Positions 2,950 through 24,392 of a DNA stretch of 64,000 bases are shown here, piece after piece (the first letter of the stretch is position 1; the number at the start of each line of letters is the position of its first letter). A model generated the notes under the pieces. The model did not search any database, was not told the DNA's origin, and saw only the letters and a list, made by a program, of their open reading frames with translations. The DNA is from Escherichia coli (GTDB lineage: Bacteria > Pseudomonadota > Gammaproteobacteria > Enterobacterales > Enterobacteriaceae). The stretch is taken from NCBI RefSeq assembly GCF_046105845.1, contig NZ_CP151004.1; one strand, written 5' to 3'. The position numbers and the translations under genes were made by a program.

Positions 2950-3938
2950 TCTTTGTCCTCTGCTTTCATTAAAACGGCGCGCTCGGTTCTGACTAACAAT
3001 TTTCCCTGCATCAGAAGCGCAAAAGTACGGATGAGCAGTATTGCAATAATAAAATTGGTAAAGATAAACAGCGGCACCGCCAGCGTATGGAAAAATCCAT
3101 TATCGCTGCCACTCCCCAGATGCAAACCGGTGGTTGCCAGTGCAGATACGCCGAACGAGAAACTCCAGAATGAAGCATTAAATGGCTGGGAGAGATACCA
3201 TGGCATCAGACGTAGCATAAACAGCAGTTGCAGCAGTCCATAACCGAAAAGCATTTTCGCCAGCGTGTCACCCTCGCCGCCGTTGACGCTCAGCCAGGCA
3301 CTACAGGCCACCAGCGCAGGAGCGAGCTGAATGCCGAGTGATGTCCGCAGCGCCGTGGGTAATTCTCCCGAACTGCGCAGACGCTGCAAGATCACCGGTT
3401 CAAGGCTTAGCCATGAGAAAACGCCTGCGCCTAAAAACACCAGACCGGCGTCGGTGTAGCCCAACGCACCACAGGCCATTGCGCTGATAAAGTTGTTGGC
3501 AACTGTCGGCAGATACAGTCCAGGCGTGGTAGCTTCTTCAGGATGAGATCCGCGCCATAATCCCGCAGTTTGCCAGGCGGCATAAGCCAACTGTACAACG
3601 ACACCAAAACTGAACAGGCATACCGCCAGTGGGCGAAACCACGGAACAAAACCAATCGCCACCAGCATCGTCGTTGCCGGAAACAAACTCACAAAACTGC
3701 TCAGCACTGGATGGCGAACTTCCGCCAGCACGCTATGCGGAAAGCGTATGAGTCGGGTAATAAATGCGCTAGTCAATAATCCCCAGATGATCATCGCCAG
3801 AATCACCAGCCCATCCCCTAACCAGTGGCTGACCTGCCAAACCTGGCTGGCATAGCGCCAGGCAAATCCCATCCCTATCGTCCCCAACACAATACCAAAG
3901 TAGCCTGCCGGCAAATTGAGCACTTTATCGCTCTGCAT
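2946..3938 (-). CDS. tehA: Tellurite resistance / dicarboxylate-transporter-family membrane protein TehA
   Basis: ORF track gives 366 aa; remembered TehA start [15 protein letters not shown] corresponds to ATG at 3938 (330 aa). Confidence 0.9.
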
Positions 3939-4061
3939 CTTCTTACTCATTTTGTTTAATTTATAAAGTATATTTGAAATGCATTTTATGGAATTTTCTC
4001 GAGCATAGCCAGAGCCGCAGAATTTGCTACGGTTATAGTAAGTCACCTGTGGGAAAACGCT

Positions 4062-5042
4062 ATGCGCAAATATCGTCTAAGTGAAGAACAGCGAGCCTTT
4101 AGTTATCAGGAAGATGGCACTAAAAAAAGTGTGTTATTACGGCAAATTATCGCCATTAGCGATTTTAACGATGTGATAGCAGGAACCGCTGGCGGCTGGA
4201 TCGATCGCGAAACGGTGTTAGCACAGGAAGGAAATTGCTGGATTTACGACCAGAATGCTATTGCGTTCGGCGGAACGGTGATATCCGGGAATACGCGTAT
4301 CACCGGCACCAGCGTGCTGTGGGGAGAGGTTTACGCAACGGATAATGTCTGGATCGATAATAGTGAAATCAGCCAGGGTGCATATATAAGTGACAGTGTC
4401 ACCATTAGTGACTCATTAGTTTGCGGTCAATGTAGAATATTTGGTCACGCCTTAATTGATCAACATTCTATGATCGTCGCCGCACAAGGCTTAACGCCCG
4501 ACCATCAACTCCTGCTACAAATTTATGATCGCGCGAGGGTTAGCGCCTCGCGTATTGTCCACCAGGCACAAATTTATGGCGATGCCGTCGTCCGGTATGC
4601 TTTTATTGAACATCGCGCCGAAGTTTTTGATTTTGCCAGTATTGAAGGTAATGAAGAGAACAACGTCTGGCTATGCGATTGCGCTAAAGTTTACGGTCAC
4701 GCGCAGGTGAAAGCTGGCATAGAAGAAGATGCCATTCCGACGATTCATTACAGTTCACAGGTGGCGGAATATGCCATTGTGGAAGGTAATTGTGTGTTAA
4801 AACATCATGTCTTGATTGGCGGAAATGCCGTGGTATGTGGCGGACCGATTCTGCTCGACGAGCACGTTGTCATACAAGGTGAGAGCCGTATTACAGGTGC
4901 GGTGATAATTGAAAACCATGTGGAGTTAACCGACCACGCCGTCGTTGAAGCCTTTGATGGCGACACGGTTCATGTCCGTGGCCCAAAAGTCATTAACGGC
5001 GAGGAGCGCATTACGCGAACGCCGCTGGCAGGGTTATTGTGA
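4062..5042 (+). CDS. ydcK: Uncharacterized hexapeptide-repeat protein YdcK
   Basis: 326-aa ORF, repetitive left-handed beta-helix-like sequence; K-12 synteny. Confidence 0.85.
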
Positions 5043-5573
5043 ATCGATAATACGCGCGTATAAGTTCACATCATCATAGGCATCATTCAGGAACTCAGCC
5101 TGTTTCAGACAACCTTCAAGGATAAAACCATTGCGCAAAGCGACTTGGTTGCTTTGCGCATTGTCCACCCGACATTTGATCACGAAGCGTCTAAGTTCAC
5201 CAGACTGAGCGTAATGATGAATCAATGCCTTCAGCGCCTGAGAAATGATCCCCTGCCCCTGATGAGATTCGTCCAGCCAGTAGCCGATTTCAGCGGTTTT
5301 ATTCAGTGGTTCAATACGATTAAACGAGATAACGCCGATAAGTTCATCTTCTTTGAAAATCATGAACATTTTGGCATAGCCGCGTTGATGCAACATCACA
5401 TTACCCTGCACCGTTTTTCGCGTGTCCTCTTCACTCTGAACAAACTGCGGCCAGTTTAGCGACTGCTGTAACCAGGTTTTATTTTTACAGATTAACTGAT
5501 AAAGAGGTATGACATGACTTTCTGCAACAGCATGTAATTCAAGTGATTCACTTACTTTTATCGTTTCAGTCAT
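5034..5573 (-). CDS. rimL: Ribosomal-protein-L7/L12 serine N-acetyltransferase RimL
   Basis: GNAT-family ORF; start trimmed to [10 protein letters not shown] (179 aa); 3' end overlaps ydcK 3' end by 9 bp. Confidence 0.88.
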
Positions 5574-5635
5574 CTTATCTCCAGTCAATCCATGCAGTTG
5601 TTAAAAAAGCCGCCTGGTTGGCGGCTTAGGAAAGT

Positions 5636-5860
5636 TTACACCTCTTTGACGCTCTCCTGCTGCAGGATTTTGAGCATCTCATCTTTTAACTGTAACTTTT
5701 GTTTTTTCATGCGGACCACTTCCGCATTGTACCCTCGACCGTCGGAACCTTCCTTTCTGGCAATTTCATGATCAAGTTTATTGTGTTTATCGAACAAGGA
5801 CATAAAGCGAGGATTTTCGTTTTTCAGACGGGATATTAAATCTCGGTATTCTGGAAACAT
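5636..5860 (-). CDS. ydcH: DUF465-like small protein YdcH
   Basis: 74-aa product from MFPEYRDLISRLK...; K-12 synteny. Confidence 0.8.
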   Translation of the reverse strand: MFPEYRDLISRLKNENPRFMSLFDKHNKLDHEIARKEGSDGRGYNAEVVRMKKQKLQLKDEMLKILQQESVKEV

Positions 5861-5999
5861 ACGCACTCCCTGTTAGTGGCTGACAAGGTGTATCTGAAAT
5901 ACACACTATCAGATTACTCATTTAACTTAGGGAAAAATGCGAGCGGGATCGTGTTTAACCAGACGGCACCTCCCGAAGAAGGTGCCGAAGAAAAAACGA

Positions 6000-7655
6000 T
6001 TAACTCATCACGCGGTCGTCAACATACTGACGTTTATCCGGCGCTGGCGGGAAATACTGATACAGCCATGTTTCACTGATAGCGTCGCCCTGACAACGCA
6101 GATACATCCGCATATCGACCGGATCAGTGGAGTCCGAAGTCGGATACCAGTCAAACTGAATACGATAACCATCAATGGGTTCAATATAGAGAATTTCGAT
6201 TTGCTTCGCTTCCCCACTGGAAAGCGTAATCACCGGCTCAATGCCTTTTGGTGCGGCAGCTTTCAGATCACCACCAACGAAATCGACGGCAAAACGACGC
6301 GCCCATTTTTCGGGATAGTGTTCACCTGGCGCCCAACCTTCCGGGAAACCGCCCATGCCGGTACGCGTCGCCATAACGCGCGCTAATGGGCAATGAACAG
6401 GCGGTTGCCCACTCCAGTACAGACGATACTGGAATGCAAACTCATCACCCGCTTTTACAGCTTTTTCTGGCTGCCAGAAGCAGACAATGTTATCCAGCGT
6501 TTCGCCCGTTGTTGGGATTTCCATCAGGCCGATGGTGCCCTTACCCCACTTGTTACGCGGTTCCACCCACAGACTTGGGCGTTTGTTATACCAGCCCATA
6601 ATGTCCTGATAATGAGAGAAATCACGATCCAGTTGCAATAAACCAAACCCTTTCGGGTTGTTGTCGGTGTAAGCATTGAACTGCAATTTTTGCGGATTGT
6701 TCAGCGGACGGCAAATCCACTCGCCGTTGCCCCGCCACATGGACAGACGATCAGAGTCATGGATTTGCGGATGAATGGTGTCGCACATCCGACGTTCATT
6801 AGTACCGCAGCTGAACATGCTGGTCATCGGCGCAATGCCCAGCTGTTTAATGTCTTTGCGCGCATACAGGTGATTTTCCACATCCATAATCACCTGACTT
6901 TTCTCACAATGGATAGTGAACTTATAGGCACCAGTAATGCTGGCGCTATCGAGCAACGCATAAACGGTAAAGGTGGTTGCCCCCGGTTTTACCGTATCAA
7001 ACCAGAAGGCGGTAAAGTCGGGGAATTCTTCTTTACTGTCGGTGTAAGTGTCGATCGCCAGGCCGCGAGCCGATAGACCGTATTGATATGTATCATCAAC
7101 CGCGCGGAAATAACTCGCGCCGAGGAATGATACGACATCACGGCGCGCCAGTTCGGGGGCTTTAAACACGCGAAAACCGGCAAAACCGAGATCACTTTGC
7201 CCTTCTAATTGTTTGGTATCAACACCCGCATCGTTGTATTTGAACAACTCCGGGCGAAAGTGAATTTCACGCGCCAGATGTGTTGCGGGATCAACAGAAA
7301 ACATACGAACGCGGCGACGGAATCCCATTCCCATATGGAAGAACTGAGCGTCCAGTTGACGGTTCTCAACGTTATGCCAGAGCGATTTTTCGGCGTCGTA
7401 TTGAATACTGTTATAAGCCTGCGGCGTCATTGTCGCCAGAGTGTCAGGTAACGGACGCGGCGCACCACGCCACGCGGTTTGCGCTAAGTCGTGCGCCATT
7501 GACTGTAGAATGGAGAAGTCAAAACGCTGGGTTTGCCCGTCGGCAATATCAGAATCTGCCGCGAATGCCGCCTGAGAAAAAAGAGAAGCAATGCCGCTGG
7601 TACCGCACACGGCGGCCATAGCCATTGAACCTTTAATAAATCGTCTACGATCCAT
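6000..7655 (-). CDS. opgD: Glucans biosynthesis protein D (OpgD/MdoD), Tat-exported
   Basis: 551-aa ORF; N-terminal twin-arginine motif DRRRFIKG; matches OpgD. Confidence 0.93.
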
Positions 7656-7879
7656 ACCTGAAAGTGAGTCCTTCTGGTGTTGTGAATGGTCCCGCGCTGG
7701 TCGTTTTCAGCGGCAAGAAAGTGCTTATTTATGACCGCTCACTCTAGACAATATTTATTAATAATCCAATTGTTGAACTGAGAGAATATGCATAAATCGG
7801 CAATTTTTTTATGTCGATGGGATGAGCCTGATTCGTTTGTAAAATCAGGCAAATTTTTGCAAAGGCGGATGGTCAGAAT

Positions 7880-9223
7880 TTAAAGCAAACCACAGCGACG
7901 TTTACTGCGTTCTTCCGCTTCCTGATAAAGCTGGAACTCATCCATAACCGGGCAGCCCAACGCCTGCTCAAATGCTTCGCGACTGGCATTACCGTGACTG
8001 CGTGCCTGCGTTTCATTACCCAGATTTGACTGGAAGATCCCCGCCGCGCTAACAGGCAAGAAATCTTCATAGGTAATGGGTTGCGCCACTACCCAACCAC
8101 GTTCAATTAAGGGCTGTGGATCGTCTCCGGGATGAATCGCCTGACGATGCGCCTCACCCGAAGGCGTCAGACGGTACCGGAACCATGCCAGCCCTTGCTG
8201 ACGCATTAAAAACTCACTATCAGGAAAAGCGCGGAAGGTTTCCTGTAAATGCATTTGGTGAGTGAGATTATCCTGCCCGGTTCCAGCGTTCCGCAGTAGA
8301 TCATCATACAGTTGTCGTCCTTTCGGCGTTAATGCCACGCCACGCTGCTCTATTTCACCAAAGCGCGCGGTATGCGTGCCCTGTTTCTGCCCTGCAAACA
8401 ACACCGTCTCTTCCAGTGCTTTAAAGCTGGTCTGGCGTAGTAAAATCGGTACCTCGCGGCGCGGCGGCCCTTCGATCAGAATTTTGGGTTCAATCCCGCA
8501 TTCAGGCATCATCGACTGCACCCGGTCAATATCCAGCGTACGTGGCGTCAGGTGGTTGATATGGCATCCAGGAAAACAGACCACATCAGCAATCAACCGA
8601 TGTTCGTTGTGCAAGGCGCGATAGGTTTCTTCATCTACCGTTGCTGACTGGTGCCAACGAAACGTTTCCAGGGCTTCCTGCACAAACTCCTGTGCCTGTG
8701 TTTCGTTAAAACCGCCCCGCTGCTCATATTCCTCTAACAGTTGTCGACAACGTGGGGTGAAGATATCGCGCTGACGCAGAATCTCCGCCGCTTTCTGGCG
8801 CAAAATTTCGTTCTCGATAAGCTCAAGGCGGAGTAATGAAGTAAAAACGCGGAAGGGATTACGCGCCAGAGAAGCATCATCAATGGGCCGAAATGCTGTC
8901 GAATGTACCGGCACCCCCGCCTGCGAGAGATCGTAATAGCTCACCGGGTACATCCCCATAATGGCAAACATCCGCCGAAGAGTAGCAAGCTCTTGTGCAG
9001 TCCCAACACGAATCGCCCCATGACGTTCAACATTCAGTCGCGCCAGCTCGTCTGCATTTACCATTTTTTCGTGCAGTTGAGGATTGTTTTCCAGCACAGC
9101 CAGATTCACATCAGCTACCAGTTCCAGCAGCGTGCCGTACTGCGGAACTTCTTGCTGGTACATGGCTGACATTGCCTGCGAAAACTGTTCCCGAATCTCA
9201 TCCGCCGTGATGCTGTTCGCCAT
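7880..9223 (-). CDS. ydcJ: DUF1338-family protein YdcJ
   Basis: 447-aa ORF, K-12 synteny and length match. Confidence 0.88.
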   Translation of the reverse strand: MANSITADEIREQFSQAMSAMYQQEVPQYGTLLELVADVNLAVLENNPQLHEKMVNADELARLNVERHGAIRVGTAQELATLRRMFAIMGMYPVSYYDLSQAGVPVHSTAFRPIDDASLARNPFRVFTSLLRLELIENEILRQKAAEILRQRDIFTPRCRQLLEEYEQRGGFNETQAQEFVQEALETFRWHQSATVDEETYRALHNEHRLIADVVCFPGCHINHLTPRTLDIDRVQSMMPECGIEPKILIEGPPRREVPILLRQTSFKALEETVLFAGQKQGTHTARFGEIEQRGVALTPKGRQLYDDLLRNAGTGQDNLTHQMHLQETFRAFPDSEFLMRQQGLAWFRYRLTPSGEAHRQAIHPGDDPQPLIERGWVVAQPITYEDFLPVSAAGIFQSNLGNETQARSHGNASREAFEQALGCPVMDEFQLYQEAEERSKRRCGLL

Positions 9224-9439
9224 AGTATCTGCCTCCAGTGGTCAGTAATCTGGAGTGTAGGTAACCGCATTCACTCCGGCGGGAAGAATTTACAAACTGT
9301 GATCTCGCCGCGAAAACATCAATATTATCCATTTTGCTGTAACATAATTGCTTTAATTGTTAATAATATTTTGCAATCAAGTTATCATAATCAAACAACT
9401 TCACTTGTCAGCGACACCGCTTCGTTTTTAACATCGCTT

Positions 9440-10363
9440 ATGGAAAAAAATAGTCTGTTTAGTCAGCGCATCCGTTTGCGCCACCTTCATACATTCGTAG
9501 CTGTCGCACAACAAGGAACTTTGGGGCGCGCGGCTGAAACCCTTAATTTGAGTCAACCTGCGCTCTCTAAGACATTGAATGAACTGGAGCAACTGACGGG
9601 CGCTCGCTTGTTTGAGCGTGGTCGTCAGGGGGCGCAACTTACCTTACCCGGCGAACAATTTTTAACGCATGCAGTCAGAGTTCTTGACGCCATCAACACT
9701 GCCGGACAGTCGCTTCATCGTAAAGAAGGTCTTAATAATGATGTCGTCAGGGTTGGTGCACTACCTACTGCGGCACTGGGGATATTACCTTCGGTTATAG
9801 GTCAGTTTCATCAGCAACAAAAAGAGACGACCTTGCAAGTTGCAACAATGAGTAACCCTATGATTCTGGCAGGTTTAAAAACCGGGGAAATCGATATCGG
9901 CATTGGTCGGATGTCAGATCCTGAACTGATGACCGGGCTTAATTACGAACTGCTGTTTCTTGAATCGCTGAAGCTGGTTGTCCGCCCTAATCACCCGCTA
10001 CTTCAGGAGAACGTAACGCTAAGCCGGGTGCTGGAATGGCCGGTTGTTGTATCACCAGAAGGCACTGCGCCACGCCAGCATTCAGATGCATTAGTGCAGA
10101 GCCAGGGCTGTAAAATTCCTTCGGGCTGTATCGAAACACTGTCTGCTTCTCTATCTCGTCAACTTACGGTTGAATACGACTACGTGTGGTTTGTCCCTTC
10201 TGGCGCTGTAAAAGACGACCTGCGTCATGCCACGCTGGTGGCCCTACCTGTTCCGGGTCATGGTGCAGGCGAACCGATTGGAATACTGACCCGCGTAGAT
10301 GCGACGTTCTCTTCTGGTTGCCAGTTGATGATTAACGCTATTCGAAAATCAATGCCGTTCTGA
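9440..10363 (+). CDS. ydcI: LysR-family transcriptional regulator YdcI
   Basis: ORF track start over-extended; ATG at 9440 (MEKNSLFSQRIRLRHLHTFVAVAQQGTLGRAAE, LysR HTH) gives 307 aa. Confidence 0.9.
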   Translation: MEKNSLFSQRIRLRHLHTFVAVAQQGTLGRAAETLNLSQPALSKTLNELEQLTGARLFERGRQGAQLTLPGEQFLTHAVRVLDAINTAGQSLHRKEGLNNDVVRVGALPTAALGILPSVIGQFHQQQKETTLQVATMSNPMILAGLKTGEIDIGIGRMSDPELMTGLNYELLFLESLKLVVRPNHPLLQENVTLSRVLEWPVVVSPEGTAPRQHSDALVQSQGCKIPSGCIETLSASLSRQLTVEYDYVWFVPSGAVKDDLRHATLVALPVPGHGAGEPIGILTRVDATFSSGCQLMINAIRKSMPF

Positions 10364-17547: not shown

Positions 17548-20500
17548 TTAACCGCTAATCTGCTCCATCGCCTGCAAAATACGCTTATCTGAAATCGGAT
17601 AAGGCGTACCAAGTTGTTGAGCGAAGTAACTAACGCGCAACTCTTCTATCATCCAACGGATCTCTTTAACGTCTTCATCCTCACGACGTGCGGGCGGTAG
17701 TTTGTTGAACCATTGCTGCCACGCCTGCTGGACGTTTTCGACTTTCAGCATCTGAGCACGGTCGCGATGCGGATCAACCGCCAGTTTTTCCAGTCGTTTT
17801 TCAATCGCCTGCAAATAACGCAGCGTGTCGCCCAGCCGTTTAAAACCGTTGCCAGTGACAAAACCGCGATACACCAGCCCGCCCATCTGCGCTTTAATGT
17901 CAGAAAGCCCCAGCGCCATGGTCATATCCACCCGCCCTTTCAGGCGTTTGTTGATATTGAACACTGCCGTAAGGATTTGCTCGACCTGCTTTGCAATATC
18001 CACCACCGTGTCGTTCAGTTCAGCGCGAACTTTTTCATGCAGCGCAGCAAAGCCTTCTTCCGTCCAGACCGGGCCACCATTGGCGTCGATCAGTTGATCC
18101 ACACCGCAGGAGATACAGTCGTCGATCAGCTCCAGCACTTTGCCATACGGGTTAAAGTACAGCCCAAGTTTGGCTTTGTTTGGCAACTTCTCATGCAAGT
18201 ATTTGATTGGTGAAGGAATATTCAGCAGCAGTAAACGACGAAGACCGTTCCACATCGCTTGCTTTTGTTCCAGCGGGTTATCAAACAGTTTGATCGCCAC
18301 GCTGTCGCGCTCATCCACCAACGCTGGCCACGCCTTCACTTTGTAGTTGCCACGCTTCTGTTCGTAGCTTTCCGGCAGCTGACCAAAACTCCAGATATGT
18401 AAGCCGCTCTGCTCGATACCGTCATCCGCCACCGCAGACAGCGTTTCCTGCACTTTGCCTTTCAGAGCATCTTTCAGATCCTGTAATGAGCGCCCTTCTT
18501 TTAACTTCTTGTTTTTGTCATCCACCACACGGAAGGTGATTTTCAGGTGATCGGGCACCTGATCCCAGTGCCAGTCTTCGCGGTCAACGGTGACGCCAGT
18601 CATCCGCCGTAGCTCTCGTTCAAGACTGTCGAGCAACGGCAATTCCAGCGGTGTGACGCGGCCTAGAAACGCTTCGGCGTAGGTTGGCGCGGGCACAAAA
18701 TTACGGCGTACTGGTTTCGGCAACGATTTAATCAGAGCAATCACCAGTTCGCGGCGCAGACCGGGGATCTGCCACTCAAACCCGCTCTCCTCAACCTGGT
18801 TAAGTAACGGCAGCGGGATATGCACAGTCACACCGTCAGCATCTGCCCCCGGCTCAAACTGATAGCTCAAACGCAGTTTGAGATTGCCCTGATGCCAGAA
18901 GTTCGGGTAATCCAGCTTGCTGATCTTTTCCGCCCCTTCTTTGATCAACATGCTCTTTTCAAAGTTGAGCAAATCAGGCGTTTCGCGGCTGACTTTTTTC
19001 CACCAGCTGTCGAAGTGACGTGCGGAGATCACATCGTGGCTGATGCGCTGGTCGTAAAACTCAAACAGCGTTTCGTCATCCACCAGAATATCGCGGCGAC
19101 GTGTTTTGTGTTCCAGTTCTTCCACTTCGGCCCGTAGTTTCAGGTTTTCACGGAAGAATGCGTGACGCGTCTGCCAGTCACCTTCCACCAGCGCGTGGCG
19201 AATAAAGAGTTCACGACATAACGCCGGATCGATCTGGCTGTAGTTGACCTTGCGCGCGGCAACAATCGGCAAGCCATAAACAGTGACTTTTTCCGTTGCC
19301 ATCACCGCGCCCTGCGCCCGTTCCCAGTGTGGTTCGCTGTAGGTGCGTTTAATTAAATGCTGAGCAACTGGCTCCACCCATTCTGGATCGATGCGTGCCG
19401 CAATGCGCCCCCACAGGCGGCTGGTTTCTACCAGTTCCGCCACCATTACCCATTTCGGCGGCTTTTTGAATAAACCAGAACCGGGAAAGATGGAAAAACG
19501 CGCGTTACGTGCGCCGGTATATTCTTGTTTATCGGCATCTTTCATGCCGATATGGGAAAGCAAACCGGTCAGTAAGGCGATGTGAATTTCGCGATACTCC
19601 GCCGGTTCGCTGTTAACCGGAATGCCAAGTTCTTTCACCACCTGGCGCAACTGGGTGTAGATATCCTGCCATTCGCGCACGCGCAGATAGTTGAGATAAT
19701 CGGTACGACACAGGCGACGGAAGGCGTTAGAAGAAAGCGCCTTTTGCTGCTCGCCAAGATAATTCCACAGATTTACAAACGCGAGGAAGTCGGATTCTTT
19801 GTCGTGGAAGCGACGATGTTTTTCGTCCGATGCCTGCTGTTTGTCCATTGGTCGCTCACGCGGATCCTGAATGGAGAGCGCGGACGTGATAATCATCGCC
19901 TCACGCACGCAGCCATGTTTTTGCGCTTCCAGCACCATACGCGCCAGACGAGGATCGACAGGCAATTGCGAAAGCTGGCGACCGAGCGGCGTTAGTTTAT
20001 AGGCGCTGGCCTGTTCATCAGTGGTGATCGCACCCAGCTCTTCAAGCAGACGCACGCCATCCTGGATATTGCGTTTATCCGGTGCTTCGACAAACGGGAA
20101 CGCCGCGATATCACCCAGCCCCAGCGCGGTCATCTGCAAAATAACCGAGGCCAGGTTGGTACGCAGAATCTCCGGATCGGTAAACTCCGGGCGCGAGAGG
20201 AAATCGTCTTCGGAATAGAGACGAATACAGATCCCTTCAGACACACGACCACAGCGGCCTTTACGCTGATTGGCAGACGCCTGCGAAATCGGCTCAATCG
20301 GCAAACGCTGCACTTTGGTGCGATAGCTGTAGCGGCTGATACGTGCTGTACCGGGGTCGATAACGTATTTAATCCCCGGTACGGTCAGCGAGGTTTCCGC
20401 GACGTTGGTCGCCAGCACAATACGCCGTCCGCTGTGCGACTGGAACACGCGGTTCTGTTCGCTGTTCGAAAGCCGCGCATAAAGCGGCAAGATTTCGGTA

Positions 20501-21450
20501 TGCCGCAGATTTAGCTTGTTCAGCGCATCGGCGGTATCGCGAATTTCCCGCTCACCGCTCATAAAGATCAGAATGTCGCCTGGGCTTTCCTGACTCAGTT
20601 CGTCTACGGCGTCAAAAATCGCCTGCAGCTGATCGCGCTCGGTGTCATCGGCTTCTTCAACAATCGGTCGATAGCGCACTTCCACCGGATAGGTCCGACC
20701 GGAGACTTCGATAATCGGCGCATTATTAAAGTGGCGCGAAAAGCGTTCCGGGTCGATAGTCGCGGAAGTGATAATGATTTTTAGGTCAGGACGCCGCGGT
20801 AGCAACTCTTTCAAATAGCCGAGCAGAAAATCGATATTCAGGCTGCGTTCGTGCGCTTCGTCAATAATGATAGTGTCGTACTGCATCAGCAGGCGGTCTT
20901 GCTGGATCTCCGCCAGCAGGATACCGTCGGTCATCAGCTTGACCATCGTGTTATCACTAACGTGATCACTGAAACGCACTTTGTAACCGATGCAACCGCC
21001 CGGCTCCGTTTTCAGCTCTTCCGCAATACGGTTCGCCACCGTTCGCGCAGCCAGACGACGCGGCTGGGTATGGCCGATCAGCCCTTTAATCCCGCGCCCC
21101 AGCTCCATACAGATTTTCGGTAGCTGAGTCGTTTTACCGGAACCCGTTTCCCCGGCGACGATCACTACCTGGTGATCACGAATTGCTTCGAAAATGTCCT
21201 GCTTTTTCTGACTAACCGGCAAATTGTCCGGATAAGTGATTTCCGGTCGTGCCGCTTCACGCAGCAGGACTTTCCCTGCCGCATGGTCAATCTCTTTCGC
21301 CATCTCCTGGAAAATGGCCTGTTGTGCATCAGGATTTTTAACCTTCTTCACGCCGTGCAGACGGCGAGAAAAACGCAGTCTGTCGCGCAGCATCAGCGAA
21401 TCCAGCCGCTGCTGCAAGGCCGTAAAGGTCAATTTTTGTTGTTCTGTCAT
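17548..21450 (-). CDS. hrpA: ATP-dependent RNA helicase HrpA (DEAH-box)
   Basis: 1300-aa ORF with Walker A GETGSGKTTQLP and DEAH box; length identical to K-12 HrpA. Confidence 0.95.
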   Translation of the reverse strand: MTEQQKLTFTALQQRLDSLMLRDRLRFSRRLHGVKKVKNPDAQQAIFQEMAKEIDHAAGKVLLREAARPEITYPDNLPVSQKKQDIFEAIRDHQVVIVAGETGSGKTTQLPKICMELGRGIKGLIGHTQPRRLAARTVANRIAEELKTEPGGCIGYKVRFSDHVSDNTMVKLMTDGILLAEIQQDRLLMQYDTIIIDEAHERSLNIDFLLGYLKELLPRRPDLKIIITSATIDPERFSRHFNNAPIIEVSGRTYPVEVRYRPIVEEADDTERDQLQAIFDAVDELSQESPGDILIFMSGEREIRDTADALNKLNLRHTEILPLYARLSNSEQNRVFQSHSGRRIVLATNVAETSLTVPGIKYVIDPGTARISRYSYRTKVQRLPIEPISQASANQRKGRCGRVSEGICIRLYSEDDFLSRPEFTDPEILRTNLASVILQMTALGLGDIAAFPFVEAPDKRNIQDGVRLLEELGAITTDEQASAYKLTPLGRQLSQLPVDPRLARMVLEAQKHGCVREAMIITSALSIQDPRERPMDKQQASDEKHRRFHDKESDFLAFVNLWNYLGEQQKALSSNAFRRLCRTDYLNYLRVREWQDIYTQLRQVVKELGIPVNSEPAEYREIHIALLTGLLSHIGMKDADKQEYTGARNARFSIFPGSGLFKKPPKWVMVAELVETSRLWGRIAARIDPEWVEPVAQHLIKRTYSEPHWERAQGAVMATEKVTVYGLPIVAARKVNYSQIDPALCRELFIRHALVEGDWQTRHAFFRENLKLRAEVEELEHKTRRRDILVDDETLFEFYDQRISHDVISARHFDSWWKKVSRETPDLLNFEKSMLIKEGAEKISKLDYPNFWHQGNLKLRLSYQFEPGADADGVTVHIPLPLLNQVEESGFEWQIPGLRRELVIALIKSLPKPVRRNFVPAPTYAEAFLGRVTPLELPLLDSLERELRRMTGVTVDREDWHWDQVPDHLKITFRVVDDKNKKLKEGRSLQDLKDALKGKVQETLSAVADDGIEQSGLHIWSFGQLPESYEQKRGNYKVKAWPALVDERDSVAIKLFDNPLEQKQAMWNGLRRLLLLNIPSPIKYLHEKLPNKAKLGLYFNPYGKVLELIDDCISCGVDQLIDANGGPVWTEEGFAALHEKVRAELNDTVVDIAKQVEQILTAVFNINKRLKGRVDMTMALGLSDIKAQMGGLVYRGFVTGNGFKRLGDTLRYLQAIEKRLEKLAVDPHRDRAQMLKVENVQQAWQQWFNKLPPARREDEDVKEIRWMIEELRVSYFAQQLGTPYPISDKRILQAMEQISG

Positions 21451-21641
21451 AACGTTAGTGGGCAGTAGGCTGCCTGATTAATTTTCTTTTAAATGATAGA
21501 TATAGAGTACCACATCGCGGCTTTCTATGCGTTGTTCAATAAATTCGAACATAGGCTTCGATTTATTGCGCTATCTCTGTGGCAGGATTGTGAATAAAGT
21601 GTCAACAAGCAACGGGGCATCGCCCATTCAAACATCTATAA

Positions 21642-22256
<615 letters not shown>

Positions 22257-22270
22257 CCGGACACGGTCTT

Positions 22271-22300
22271 GATGTGGACTGTAGATATTCAGTCCACATC
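22271..22300. terminator. Bidirectional hairpin between convergent azoR and ydbC (gatgtggactg-N8-cagtccacatc)
   Basis: 11-bp perfect inverted repeat in the 113-bp intergenic region. Confidence 0.6.
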
Positions 22301-22369
22301 TTAATCCGCTTACCTGTTTTCTATCGCTTTGTGCTCTTCCTTAAGCACAATCTGCGAGCGCCTGACTCG

Positions 22370-23230
22370 TTATTCTCGCGAAATACCATCCAACGTAGAC
22401 AACACTTCCTCAGAAAGATGCAATTTTTCAGCAGCCATATTCTCCCGTAAATGCGCAACAGAAGACGTCCCTGGGATCAGCAAAATATTCGGTGAACGTT
22501 GTAACAGCCACGCCAGCGCCACCTGCATTGGTGTTGCACCCAGGCTCGCAGCAACATCGGAAAGCGTGGAAGATTGCAGCGGCGTAAAGCCCCCGAGCGG
22601 AAAGAACGGCACGTAGGCAATGCCATCGCGGGCCAAATCATCAATCATTGCGTCATCAGCACGATGAGCAATGTTGTATTCGTTCTGCACACAGACGATT
22701 TCGGTAATCTTACGCGCCTCTGCAACCTGCGTCGGTGTGACGTTGCTCAGGCCAATATGTTTTACCAGGCCTTGTTGTTGCATCTCTGCCAGCACGGTCA
22801 GGCTGGCTTCAATCGATCCTTCCGCCGGGCCATGACCATCCCCCATCATGACGCGCAGGTTAACCACATCCAGTACGTCCAGACCGAGATTACGTAGATT
22901 ATCGTGCACCGCTTTTTGCAGCTCTGCCGGAGAAAATGCGGGCAACCAGGAAGCGTCCTCTCCACGCCGCGCACCAATTTTAGTGACAATTGTCAGGTCG
23001 TCAGAGTAAGGATGTAGCGCTTCGCGGATAATCTGATTGGTGACGTGCGGACCATAAAAGTCGCTGGTATCAATATGATTGACGCCCAATGCCAGCGCCT
23101 CGCGCAGCACGGTTATAGCAACGTGGCGATCTCTTGGGGGGCCAAAAACCCCAGGGCCTGCCAGTTGCATCGCGCCATAACCAAGACGGTTAACGGATTT
23201 TGTACCGAGAGTAAATGTGTTGCTGCTCAT
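22370..23230 (-). CDS. ydbC: Aldo-keto reductase family oxidoreductase YdbC
   Basis: 286-aa ORF with AKR fold signatures; matches remembered YdbC. Confidence 0.88.
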   Translation of the reverse strand: MSSNTFTLGTKSVNRLGYGAMQLAGPGVFGPPRDRHVAITVLREALALGVNHIDTSDFYGPHVTNQIIREALHPYSDDLTIVTKIGARRGEDASWLPAFSPAELQKAVHDNLRNLGLDVLDVVNLRVMMGDGHGPAEGSIEASLTVLAEMQQQGLVKHIGLSNVTPTQVAEARKITEIVCVQNEYNIAHRADDAMIDDLARDGIAYVPFFPLGGFTPLQSSTLSDVAASLGATPMQVALAWLLQRSPNILLIPGTSSVAHLRENMAAEKLHLSEEVLSTLDGISRE

Positions 23231-23385
23231 CGCACCCTGCCCTGTAGTAAAACGGATTAAGAAAAATCAGTATAGAAACGAAAAGAGATAAATAATGCGA
23301 AGGCGTAAACAAGATTACTGGATGAGTTGCTCTATTGTCCTTGAAGACACCAAACCAAAACGCCTAAAGCATCGCATCCGGCAAT

Positions 23386-23416
23386 AAAAAACCGCAACCT
23401 GTATCAGCGTTGCGGT
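23386..23416 (-). terminator. Rho-independent terminator downstream of paaY (accgcaac...gttgcggt + T-run on minus strand)
   Basis: 8-bp stem with A5 on plus strand; adjacent partial REP-like motif gcatcgcatccggcaa. Confidence 0.6.
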
Positions 23417-23460
23417 TTGTGTATCACATGCTAAAAATTAGAACGTCCAGCATCAGGACG

Positions 23461-24051
23461 TTACTGTTTCGGTCGCAGATTCTCATCAAATACCAGGCGT
23501 TTCCTGCCAGGTTCAACTTCCCGCAATGGCTCGACTTGATGTAACGTCTGCTTACAGCGTGTCACCAGCACCTGGTACTCATGCGTACCCTGCTTTTTCC
23601 ATGCCAACTCCTGCTCACTGAGTTCACGAATCGCTTTCGCCGGGCTGCCGACAATCAGGTAATTAGCTGGCATTTCTGCTTTGGCTTTCACAAATGCGGA
23701 TGCGCCAACAATGCTGTTCTCGCCAATCACCGCACCGTCTATCACTACCGCGTTCATTCCCACTAATGCATTGCGGCGGATAATGCAGCCGTGAAGGATA
23801 GCGCTATGACCAATATGTCCATCTTCTTCCACGACAGTATCCTGCTCGGGAAAACCGTGCATAACGCAATTATCCTGAATGTTCGCGCCATTTTTCACCA
23901 CGATACGATCAAAATCGCCACGCAGGCTGGCATTTGGCCCAACGTAAACGCCCTTGCCGAGAATAACATCGCCGATCAATACCGCTGTCGGATGAACAAA
24001 ACTCTCTTGTGGTACAACCGGAGTCAGACCGTCTATCTGATAAATTGGCAT
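23461..24051 (-). CDS. paaY: PaaY-like hexapeptide-repeat acyltransferase/thioesterase, intact but lacking the rest of the paa cluster
   Basis: 196-aa [37 protein letters not shown]... with left-handed beta-helix repeats; matches PaaY. Confidence 0.85.
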
Positions 24052-24158
24052 AACGCCTCCTGTTCAATATTCAAGCCGCCAAAACGTTGAAAATACAGGC
24101 TTCCCGGCGCAGGCAATTCACCGACCGAGGTTTCACCTTTTTCACTAACGAACGCTAA
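24033..24158 (-). pseudogene. paaX: 3'-terminal remnant of paaX (about 40 C-terminal codons), 5' part deleted
   Basis: Minus-strand frame ends 19 nt inside paaY as expected for paaX; N-terminal part of the 97-aa ORF is antisense to the feaR remnant, so only about 24033-24158 is likely paaX-derived; junction position approximate. Confidence 0.45.
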
Positions 24159-24392
24159 AGCAGCAGGCGCTACGCGCTGATAAAGTTTGCCGATAAAGGT
24201 TTGGTAGTCGCGCAATATATCCGTAACCGTCGTCTCGATTTTTGTGCAGATGCGATTCGCCATGCCGCAGATGATGAAAAACTGGCAGGCATTGGCTTTC
24301 ATTGGGGATTTTCCGACCAGAGTCATTTTTCAACGGTATTTAAGCAACGCTTTGGGATGACGCCAGGCGAGTATCGACGTAAATTCCGCTAA
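24159..24392 (+). pseudogene. feaR: 3'-terminal remnant of feaR (AraC-family C-terminal HTH region), 5' part deleted
   Basis: Plus frame ...YALIKFADKGLVVAQYIRNRRLDFCADAIRHAADDEKLAGIGFHWGFSDQSHFSTVFKQRFGMTPGEYRRKFR* is a typical AraC/XylS second HTH; in-frame stop at 24156-24158; convergent with ydbL as feaR is in K-12. Confidence 0.5.

Follow-up and report, generated by a model that had tools for sequence, protein, structure and literature searches.

The azoR-pdxI spacer of an Escherichia coli strain as the probable scar of a ydbD-ynbABCD deletion shared with ST38

In Escherichia coli K-12 MG1655, the convergent genes azoR and pdxI (ydbC) stand at the two ends of a locus (b1406-b1412) whose record reads azoR, ynbD, ynbC, ynbB, ynbA, ydbD and pdxI, with 7173 bp from the stop codon of azoR to that of pdxI. 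The heteromer BglJ-RcsB relieves H-NS repression at other loci, leuO and bgl among them. Here, it activates the ynbA promoter (PMC3950696). In the literature on ynbA, ynbB, ynbD and ydbD, no paper was found that describes a polymorphism of the azoR-pdxI interval. The DNA studied in this article, a stretch of 64,000 nucleotides from E. coli referred to below as the window, has the two outer genes side by side. The original prediction set this arrangement against a K-12 map that agrees with the MG1655 record; it then offered two histories, an ancestral unoccupied site that the K-12 lineage later filled, or a clean deletion. Which of the two is told by the 113 bp that now separate azoR from pdxI?

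Both flanking genes are intact. azoR, which encodes an FMN-dependent NADH-azoreductase, is an intact open reading frame (ORF) of 201 codons at 21651-22256 on the plus strand in the ORF list. Its product is about 100% identical to K-12 AzoR by tblastn, and its NCBIfam azoreductase matches all score under the curated cut-offs. On the minus strand, at 22370-23230, pdxI encodes a pyridoxine 4-dehydrogenase of 286 residues (NCBIfam PRK10376, 559 bits); its coding sequence is intact, and a C-terminal alignment gives the same ending, LDGISRE, as in K-12. The convergence of the two genes and the 113 bp between them are thus confirmed. Further out lie hrpA (17548-21450, minus strand) and paaY (23461-24051, minus strand).

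The spacer, which runs from stop codon to stop codon at 22257-22369, was resolved by alignment to K-12, VCSW5, EC69 and O157:H7, and it is made up of two parts. The 53 bp next to azoR (22257-22309) are the native azoR/ynbD intergenic region. The remaining 60 bp (22310-22369, minus strand) are a 3′-terminal stump of ynbD, 19 codons plus the stop codon, recognized both by in-frame translation and by DNA alignment. The interval had been said to hold no remnants of the missing genes, a statement that has to be withdrawn, since 60 of its 113 bp, down to the stop codon, come from the 3′ end of ynbD. The counterpart of the stump is the last 72 nt of K-12 ynbD, minus 12 bp (four codons) lost between 22321 and 22322. 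Read in frame up to its stop, it gives RVRRSQIVLKEEHKAIENR, which matches the YnbD C-termini of K-12, EC69, O157 and Citrobacter; the EC69 allele ends in RARRSRIVLKEEHKAMLKLWENR and that of Citrobacter in RARRAQVVLTDKHLEMLQQWQQKVTV. The closest allele found is the ynbD of EC69 and O157, with 42 of 45 aligned bases identical and 3 different. The divergence of about 11% between the stump and K-12 was considered as decay following the deletion, and this was rejected: given the match to EC69/O157 ynbD, it is mostly allelic. Because the stump is an in-frame 3′ end of ynbD, it points to a deletion and not to an ancestral empty site. Taken as a whole, the spacer very probably marks the place where about 7.05 kb were lost in a single deletion, and the allele with this scar is shared with ST38 strains.

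In K-12 coordinates (locus L001), the missing DNA extends over 2956-10003, that is 7048 bp, and its equivalent in strain VCSW5 measures 7039 bp; the 12 bp within the stump come in addition. It comprises most of ynbD, the whole of ynbC, ynbB, ynbA and ydbD, and the intergenic region between ydbD and pdxI. On the left, the deletion starts within ynbD, 72 nt from its 3′ end, and on the right it stops exactly at the pdxI stop codon, while both azoR and pdxI coding sequences are still intact beside the scar. At the junction, TCG/TTA (22367-22372), the pdxI stop (TTA on the plus strand) directly abuts what is left of ynbD. In the parental sequences of both K-12 and VCSW5, the left end, within ynbD, reads CTGGCTCG/AATATAGC, and the right end, before the pdxI stop, reads GTATATTCG/TTATTCTCG, the slash marking the breakpoint. 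Both parental ends thus carry the trinucleotide TCG. This 3-bp microhomology fits a microhomology-mediated deletion but proves nothing, since at least 3 bp are shared by 5.4% of random endpoint pairs. Neither IS element nor integrase is annotated within the block in K-12 or VCSW5, and no long direct repeats were found at its ends. The deletion would have originated through illegitimate recombination or replication slippage at TCG, without any mobile element. Beside this direct repeat, the two endpoints (K-12 L001 2948-2963 and 9995-10003; window junction between 22369 and 22370) coincide exactly with an inverted repeat of 8 bp, CGAATATA / TATATTCG. Such a repeat occurs in 0.25% of random endpoint pairs, a figure to be read knowing that the repeat was noticed post hoc, and it might have helped to join the ends. 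It is left out of the mechanism for this reason, and because an AT-rich 8-bp stem spanning 7 kb is physically weak. As both flanking genes are intact, the loss of the YnbABCD enzymes, predicted to be of phospholipid type, and of YdbD would presumably have been tolerated without harm.

The hairpins suggest what the deletion may have done to the 3′ ends of the two convergent genes. In K-12, pdxI has an intrinsic terminator, a 10-bp stem followed by a T-run (L001 9994-9969), located inside the deleted DNA, so the deletion took away pdxI's own terminator. The word "clean" does not suit an event that left 60 bp of ynbD, went with an extra 12-bp loss and removed a terminator, even if the proposal of a deletion stands. 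What persists is the native hairpin of the azoR/ynbD intergenic region, GATGTGGACTG-TAGATATT-CAGTCCACATC, which folds at 22271-22300 into a perfect 11-bp stem with 6 G-C pairs and an 8-nt loop, and is identical in sequence to that of K-12 (L001 2845-2874). On both strands, the folding of the spacer as a whole is far stronger than that of its shuffled versions (z = -5.0 and -5.4). The 11-bp stem had been described as a single, bidirectional hairpin. The stem is there as described, but it is not alone: minimum-free-energy and centroid structures place a second, smaller hairpin within the ynbD stump (22324-22357), with a 7-bp inner stem at 22329-22350 and a 4-bp outer stem. The same stem arms, TTGTGCT and AGCACAA, are seen by eye in the K-12 ynbD coding sequence, where they were compared as sequence and not folded. 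As for bidirectionality in the sense of a terminator, it finds no support: the stem is flanked by CTTAATCC on the plus strand and by AAGACCGT on the minus strand, with no T-run on either side, and a promoter and terminator scan reported nothing within the spacer. Nor does the spacer belong to any known RNA family in an Rfam scan of 21400-23500 (E ≤ 1), whose one hit was a chance match to a miRNA hairpin (19.6 bits against a cut-off of 87 bits). Transcripts of pdxI would now cross the 60-nt ynbD stump and may end at, or be stabilised by, the old azoR/ynbD hairpin. This putative element, devoid of a U-tract, would then provide a 3′ end for both convergent genes.

The nearest complete relative of the window is VCSW5, collinear with it at 98.2-98.5% identity over 64 kb. 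Two aligned blocks flank the 7.05-kb gap, and the only structural differences between the two are this block and one IS200: VCSW5 carries a copy of IS200C at a site corresponding to window positions ~1349-1354, between ydcO and ydcL, and the window has none there. Two further assemblies are close, L097 (GCA_044249515.1) and L094 (CM129746.1), respectively 99.99% and 98.9% identical to the window. Both have the order ydbH-ynbE-ydbL-paaY-pdxI-azoR-hrpA with a 113-bp spacer, exactly as in the window, and both possess its junction and its 12-bp internal gap. The similarity to VCSW5 is a mosaic: over 17848-19948, which is 2.1 kb of hrpA, there are 0-1 mismatches per 300 bp, and over 19948-22650, towards azoR and pdxI, there are 6-19. 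This pattern suggests recombination tracts around the locus.

On the other side of pdxI, a second, larger deletion scar occupies 24033-24392, where paaX′, a C-terminal fragment of 50 codons (24033-24185, minus strand), is fused to another C-terminal fragment (24186-24392, plus strand). The latter, annotated in VCSW5 as an incomplete helix-turn-helix protein, is putatively feaR′, an identity that we take from the K-12 gene order. The window is without most of the paa-tynA-fea cluster; compared with the K-12 gene order, presumably some 17 kb (feaB, tynA, paaZ, paaA-K and parts of feaR and paaX) are missing between ydbL and paaY. VCSW5 carries the paaX′-feaR′ scar too, as probably do other genomes collinear with the window (e.g., ST648). 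The gap between pdxI and paaY is only 230 bp (23231-23460), and the large autotransporter gene ydbA/bigA is absent from it. In K-12 that gene is disrupted by IS2/IS30, and in CFSAN061763, a strain with the same azoR-pdxI scar, it is a long ORF of more than 6 kb cut by the end of the locus.

How common are these arrangements? Among 5426 complete E. coli genomes, at least part of the ydbD-ynbABCD block is found in 4623 (85%), and at least 80% of its length in 3758, with K-12, BL21, HS, O104:H4, O157:H7 and ST648 among the carriers. Genomes with a partial block mostly have ynbABCD without ydbD, as in ATCC 25922, an APEC O2:K1:H5 strain and EC69 (L086 13712-14009), three strains that we take to be of phylogroup B2. 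The exact junction of the window is present in 145 genomes, and a different compact spacer, called class B below, in 643; together these make 788, in agreement with the 787 genomes counted as having azoR next to pdxI. The scar with its 12-bp gap is found in CFSAN061763 and in 144 other complete genomes, which include 28Eco12, 266917_2 and NMBU_W05E18. The first two of these are ST38, and the third is ST38/phylogroup D (PMC6963479, PMC7311804). Over 241 bp around the junction, the window is 98.3% identical to the ST38-type allele, with 4 bases different. The scar allele is common to ST38 strains and a few other lineages, and the 145 genomes would share it with the window either by descent or through recombination. 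As the same scar is present in that many public complete genomes, the ST38 clone included, the loss of ydbD and ynbABCD in this strain is ordinary strain variation, a deletion polymorphism that had already been sequenced.

Class B (e.g., MINF_1D and Ecol_244) resembles the window in that azoR and pdxI converge as direct neighbours, without ynb genes or ydbD between them. Many of its 643 genomes may be ST131. Its spacer, contrary to the 113 bp of the window with their ynbD stump, measures 39-40 bp and is without any ynbD remnant (loci L003 3858-3897, L004 3078-3116 and L005 10607-10654). It has a hairpin with a T-run behind it (GCCTCCCACGAAAGTGGGAGGTTTTTTT), unlike the hairpin of the window and of the CCTCCC...GGGAGG type that Citrobacter, Salmonella arizonae and Phytobacter carry next to azoR. 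The class B pdxI encodes 288 residues; over its final ~100 bp it diverges by about 33% from pdxI of the K-12 type, and the protein has an outgroup-like C-terminus (IAQKAG). To judge from these sequences, class B is a separate allele lineage from the deletion of the window, and it could represent an allele that is old or introgressed. No other state resembles an unoccupied site, and the state of the window is a different one.

Outside E. coli, evidence was gathered by an AzoR search of genome contigs; the matches listed contain one Salmonella and no E. fergusonii, E. marmotae, E. ruysiae or Shigella, and within Escherichia the outgroup evidence consists of E. albertii (266 bp) and of one species representative mislabelled "E. 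coli" (L005). Among these matches, azoR has ynbABCD downstream of it in many Citrobacter, in Klebsiella spallanzanii, Phytobacter, Superficieibacter and strain LSJC7, with 57-78% amino-acid identity and without ydbD. The latter gene was not found within 10 kb downstream of azoR at any non-Escherichia locus examined among the matches listed. In E. albertii NBRC 107761 (L006 6739-7001), a diverged copy of the hairpin comes after azoR, and then a C-terminal YnbD fragment, of which about 30 residues are detectable, joined to the 3′ end of ydbD, all within 266 bp at a contig end. Since E. albertii keeps parts of both, ynbD and ydbD predate the split between E. coli and E. albertii. The origin of ydbD thus seems to be older than E. 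coli, and E. albertii appears to have lost ynbABC, together with most of ynbD, in an independent event. In composition, ynbD and ynbC are core-like (50-52% GC), ynbB and ynbA have 44-48% GC, and ydbD, with 40-44%, is the only gene of foreign look; no mobility gene is annotated in the block in K-12.

It is against these data that the other explanations must be weighed. That azoR-pdxI adjacency is the original state, with ydbD-ynbABCD inserted later in the K-12 lineage, is in keeping with the same adjacency without ynb genes in Enterobacter sp. kpr-6 and Kluyvera intermedia among the matches listed, with the remnant-free 40-bp spacer of 643 E. coli genomes, and with a ydbD that is AT-rich and missing downstream of azoR outside Escherichia. 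Contrary to this reading, the spacer of the window contains an in-frame ynbD stump, the block is present in 85% of complete genomes from diverse strains, ynbABCD adjoins azoR in other genera, E. albertii has kept the ends of ynbD and ydbD, and the GC content of ynbD and ynbC is that of the core. A genomic island would be restricted in its distribution and would have left an empty site free of its own sequence; instead, 4623 of 5426 genomes carry part of this block (3758 at least 80%), ynbABCD neighbours azoR in several genera, and the site in the window holds the 3′ end of ynbD. A K-12-lineage insertion is therefore highly improbable, and the ancestral unoccupied site of the original prediction is refuted by the stump, the distribution, the outgroup synteny and E. 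albertii: the block is ancestral and not a K-12 acquisition. Equally to be considered is an assembly in which the 7-kb block was dropped or collapsed. Since the same architecture is present in L097 and L094, the scar is not such an artefact; besides these two assemblies, the junction recurs, identical at every base, in 145 complete genomes that come from many laboratories, and the block is flanked by no repeats able to collapse an assembly, which makes this explanation next to impossible.

How the strain came by the allele is a separate matter. It may tentatively be proposed that the lineage of the window received the deleted allele through homologous recombination with an ST38-like donor of phylogroup D, or that the transfer went the other way, a history that we consider possible but rather doubtful. 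In its favour, the identical junction and 12-bp gap stand in different right-hand contexts, with ydbA/bigA present in CFSAN061763 and absent from the window. Mismatches between hrpA and pdxI also form a mosaic: VCSW5 is nearly identical over 17848-19948, and closer to the junction it differs by 2-6%. The exact PdxI protein of the window is also found in other genomes (L091 and others) where the block is complete and the paa operon intact. On the other hand, 4 of 241 bases around the junction differ from the ST38-type allele, so any transfer was not recent, and vertical inheritance followed by recombination in the flanks accounts equally well for the data. Import concerns the history of the allele only and is compatible with the deletion mechanism, so the reading of the spacer as a deletion scar holds with or without it.

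What does the scar then tell us about the operon? It is conceivable, if unlikely, that the azoR-pdxI interval is a hotspot of recurrent loss, where the normally silent ynbABCD and ydbD disappeared on several independent occasions: in the ST38/window scar, in the compact haplotype of 643 genomes, in the B2-type state without ydbD, in E. albertii and in E. coli Z1323HEC0477. If this were true, it would mean selection against the operon, or at least its full dispensability, in some successful clones, and the inverted repeat of 8 bp found where the deletion ends would be a hint of structure-assisted slippage. The five genes of ydbD-ynbABCD are non-essential, ancestral and dispensable in E. coli, and the strain of the window is a defined natural ynbABCD/ydbD knockout with intact neighbours. 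This could be of modest use for the study of uncharacterised phospholipid-type enzymes, or of 3′-end formation in convergent genes deprived of a terminator. Otherwise, the scar matters little beyond bookkeeping, apart from correcting the idea of the block as a K-12 acquisition.

The locus of the window can be compared with several known ones. EC69 and ATCC 25922 vary in the same azoR-pdxI interval, but only ydbD is missing there. E. albertii NBRC 107761 and Z1323HEC0477 both have, as in the window, a ynbD 3′ stump beside the azoR hairpin, but with other endpoints; in Z1323HEC0477 (L090 3001-3623), a separate deletion has kept 291 bp of ynbD and truncated pdxI, with loss of the PdxI C-terminus. 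The ST38 genomes and CFSAN061763 share with the window the junction, the 60-bp ynbD stump with its 12-bp gap and the hairpin, although CFSAN061763 retains the large ydbA/bigA autotransporter gene beside pdxI where the window has paaY. Finally, K-12 MG1655 has the same flanking genes in the same orientations, the same azoR-proximal 53-bp intergenic region and the same 11-bp-stem hairpin; it differs by its 7173 bp between the two stop codons and its canonical pdxI terminator, whereas in the window the stop codons are 113 bp apart and this terminator is missing.
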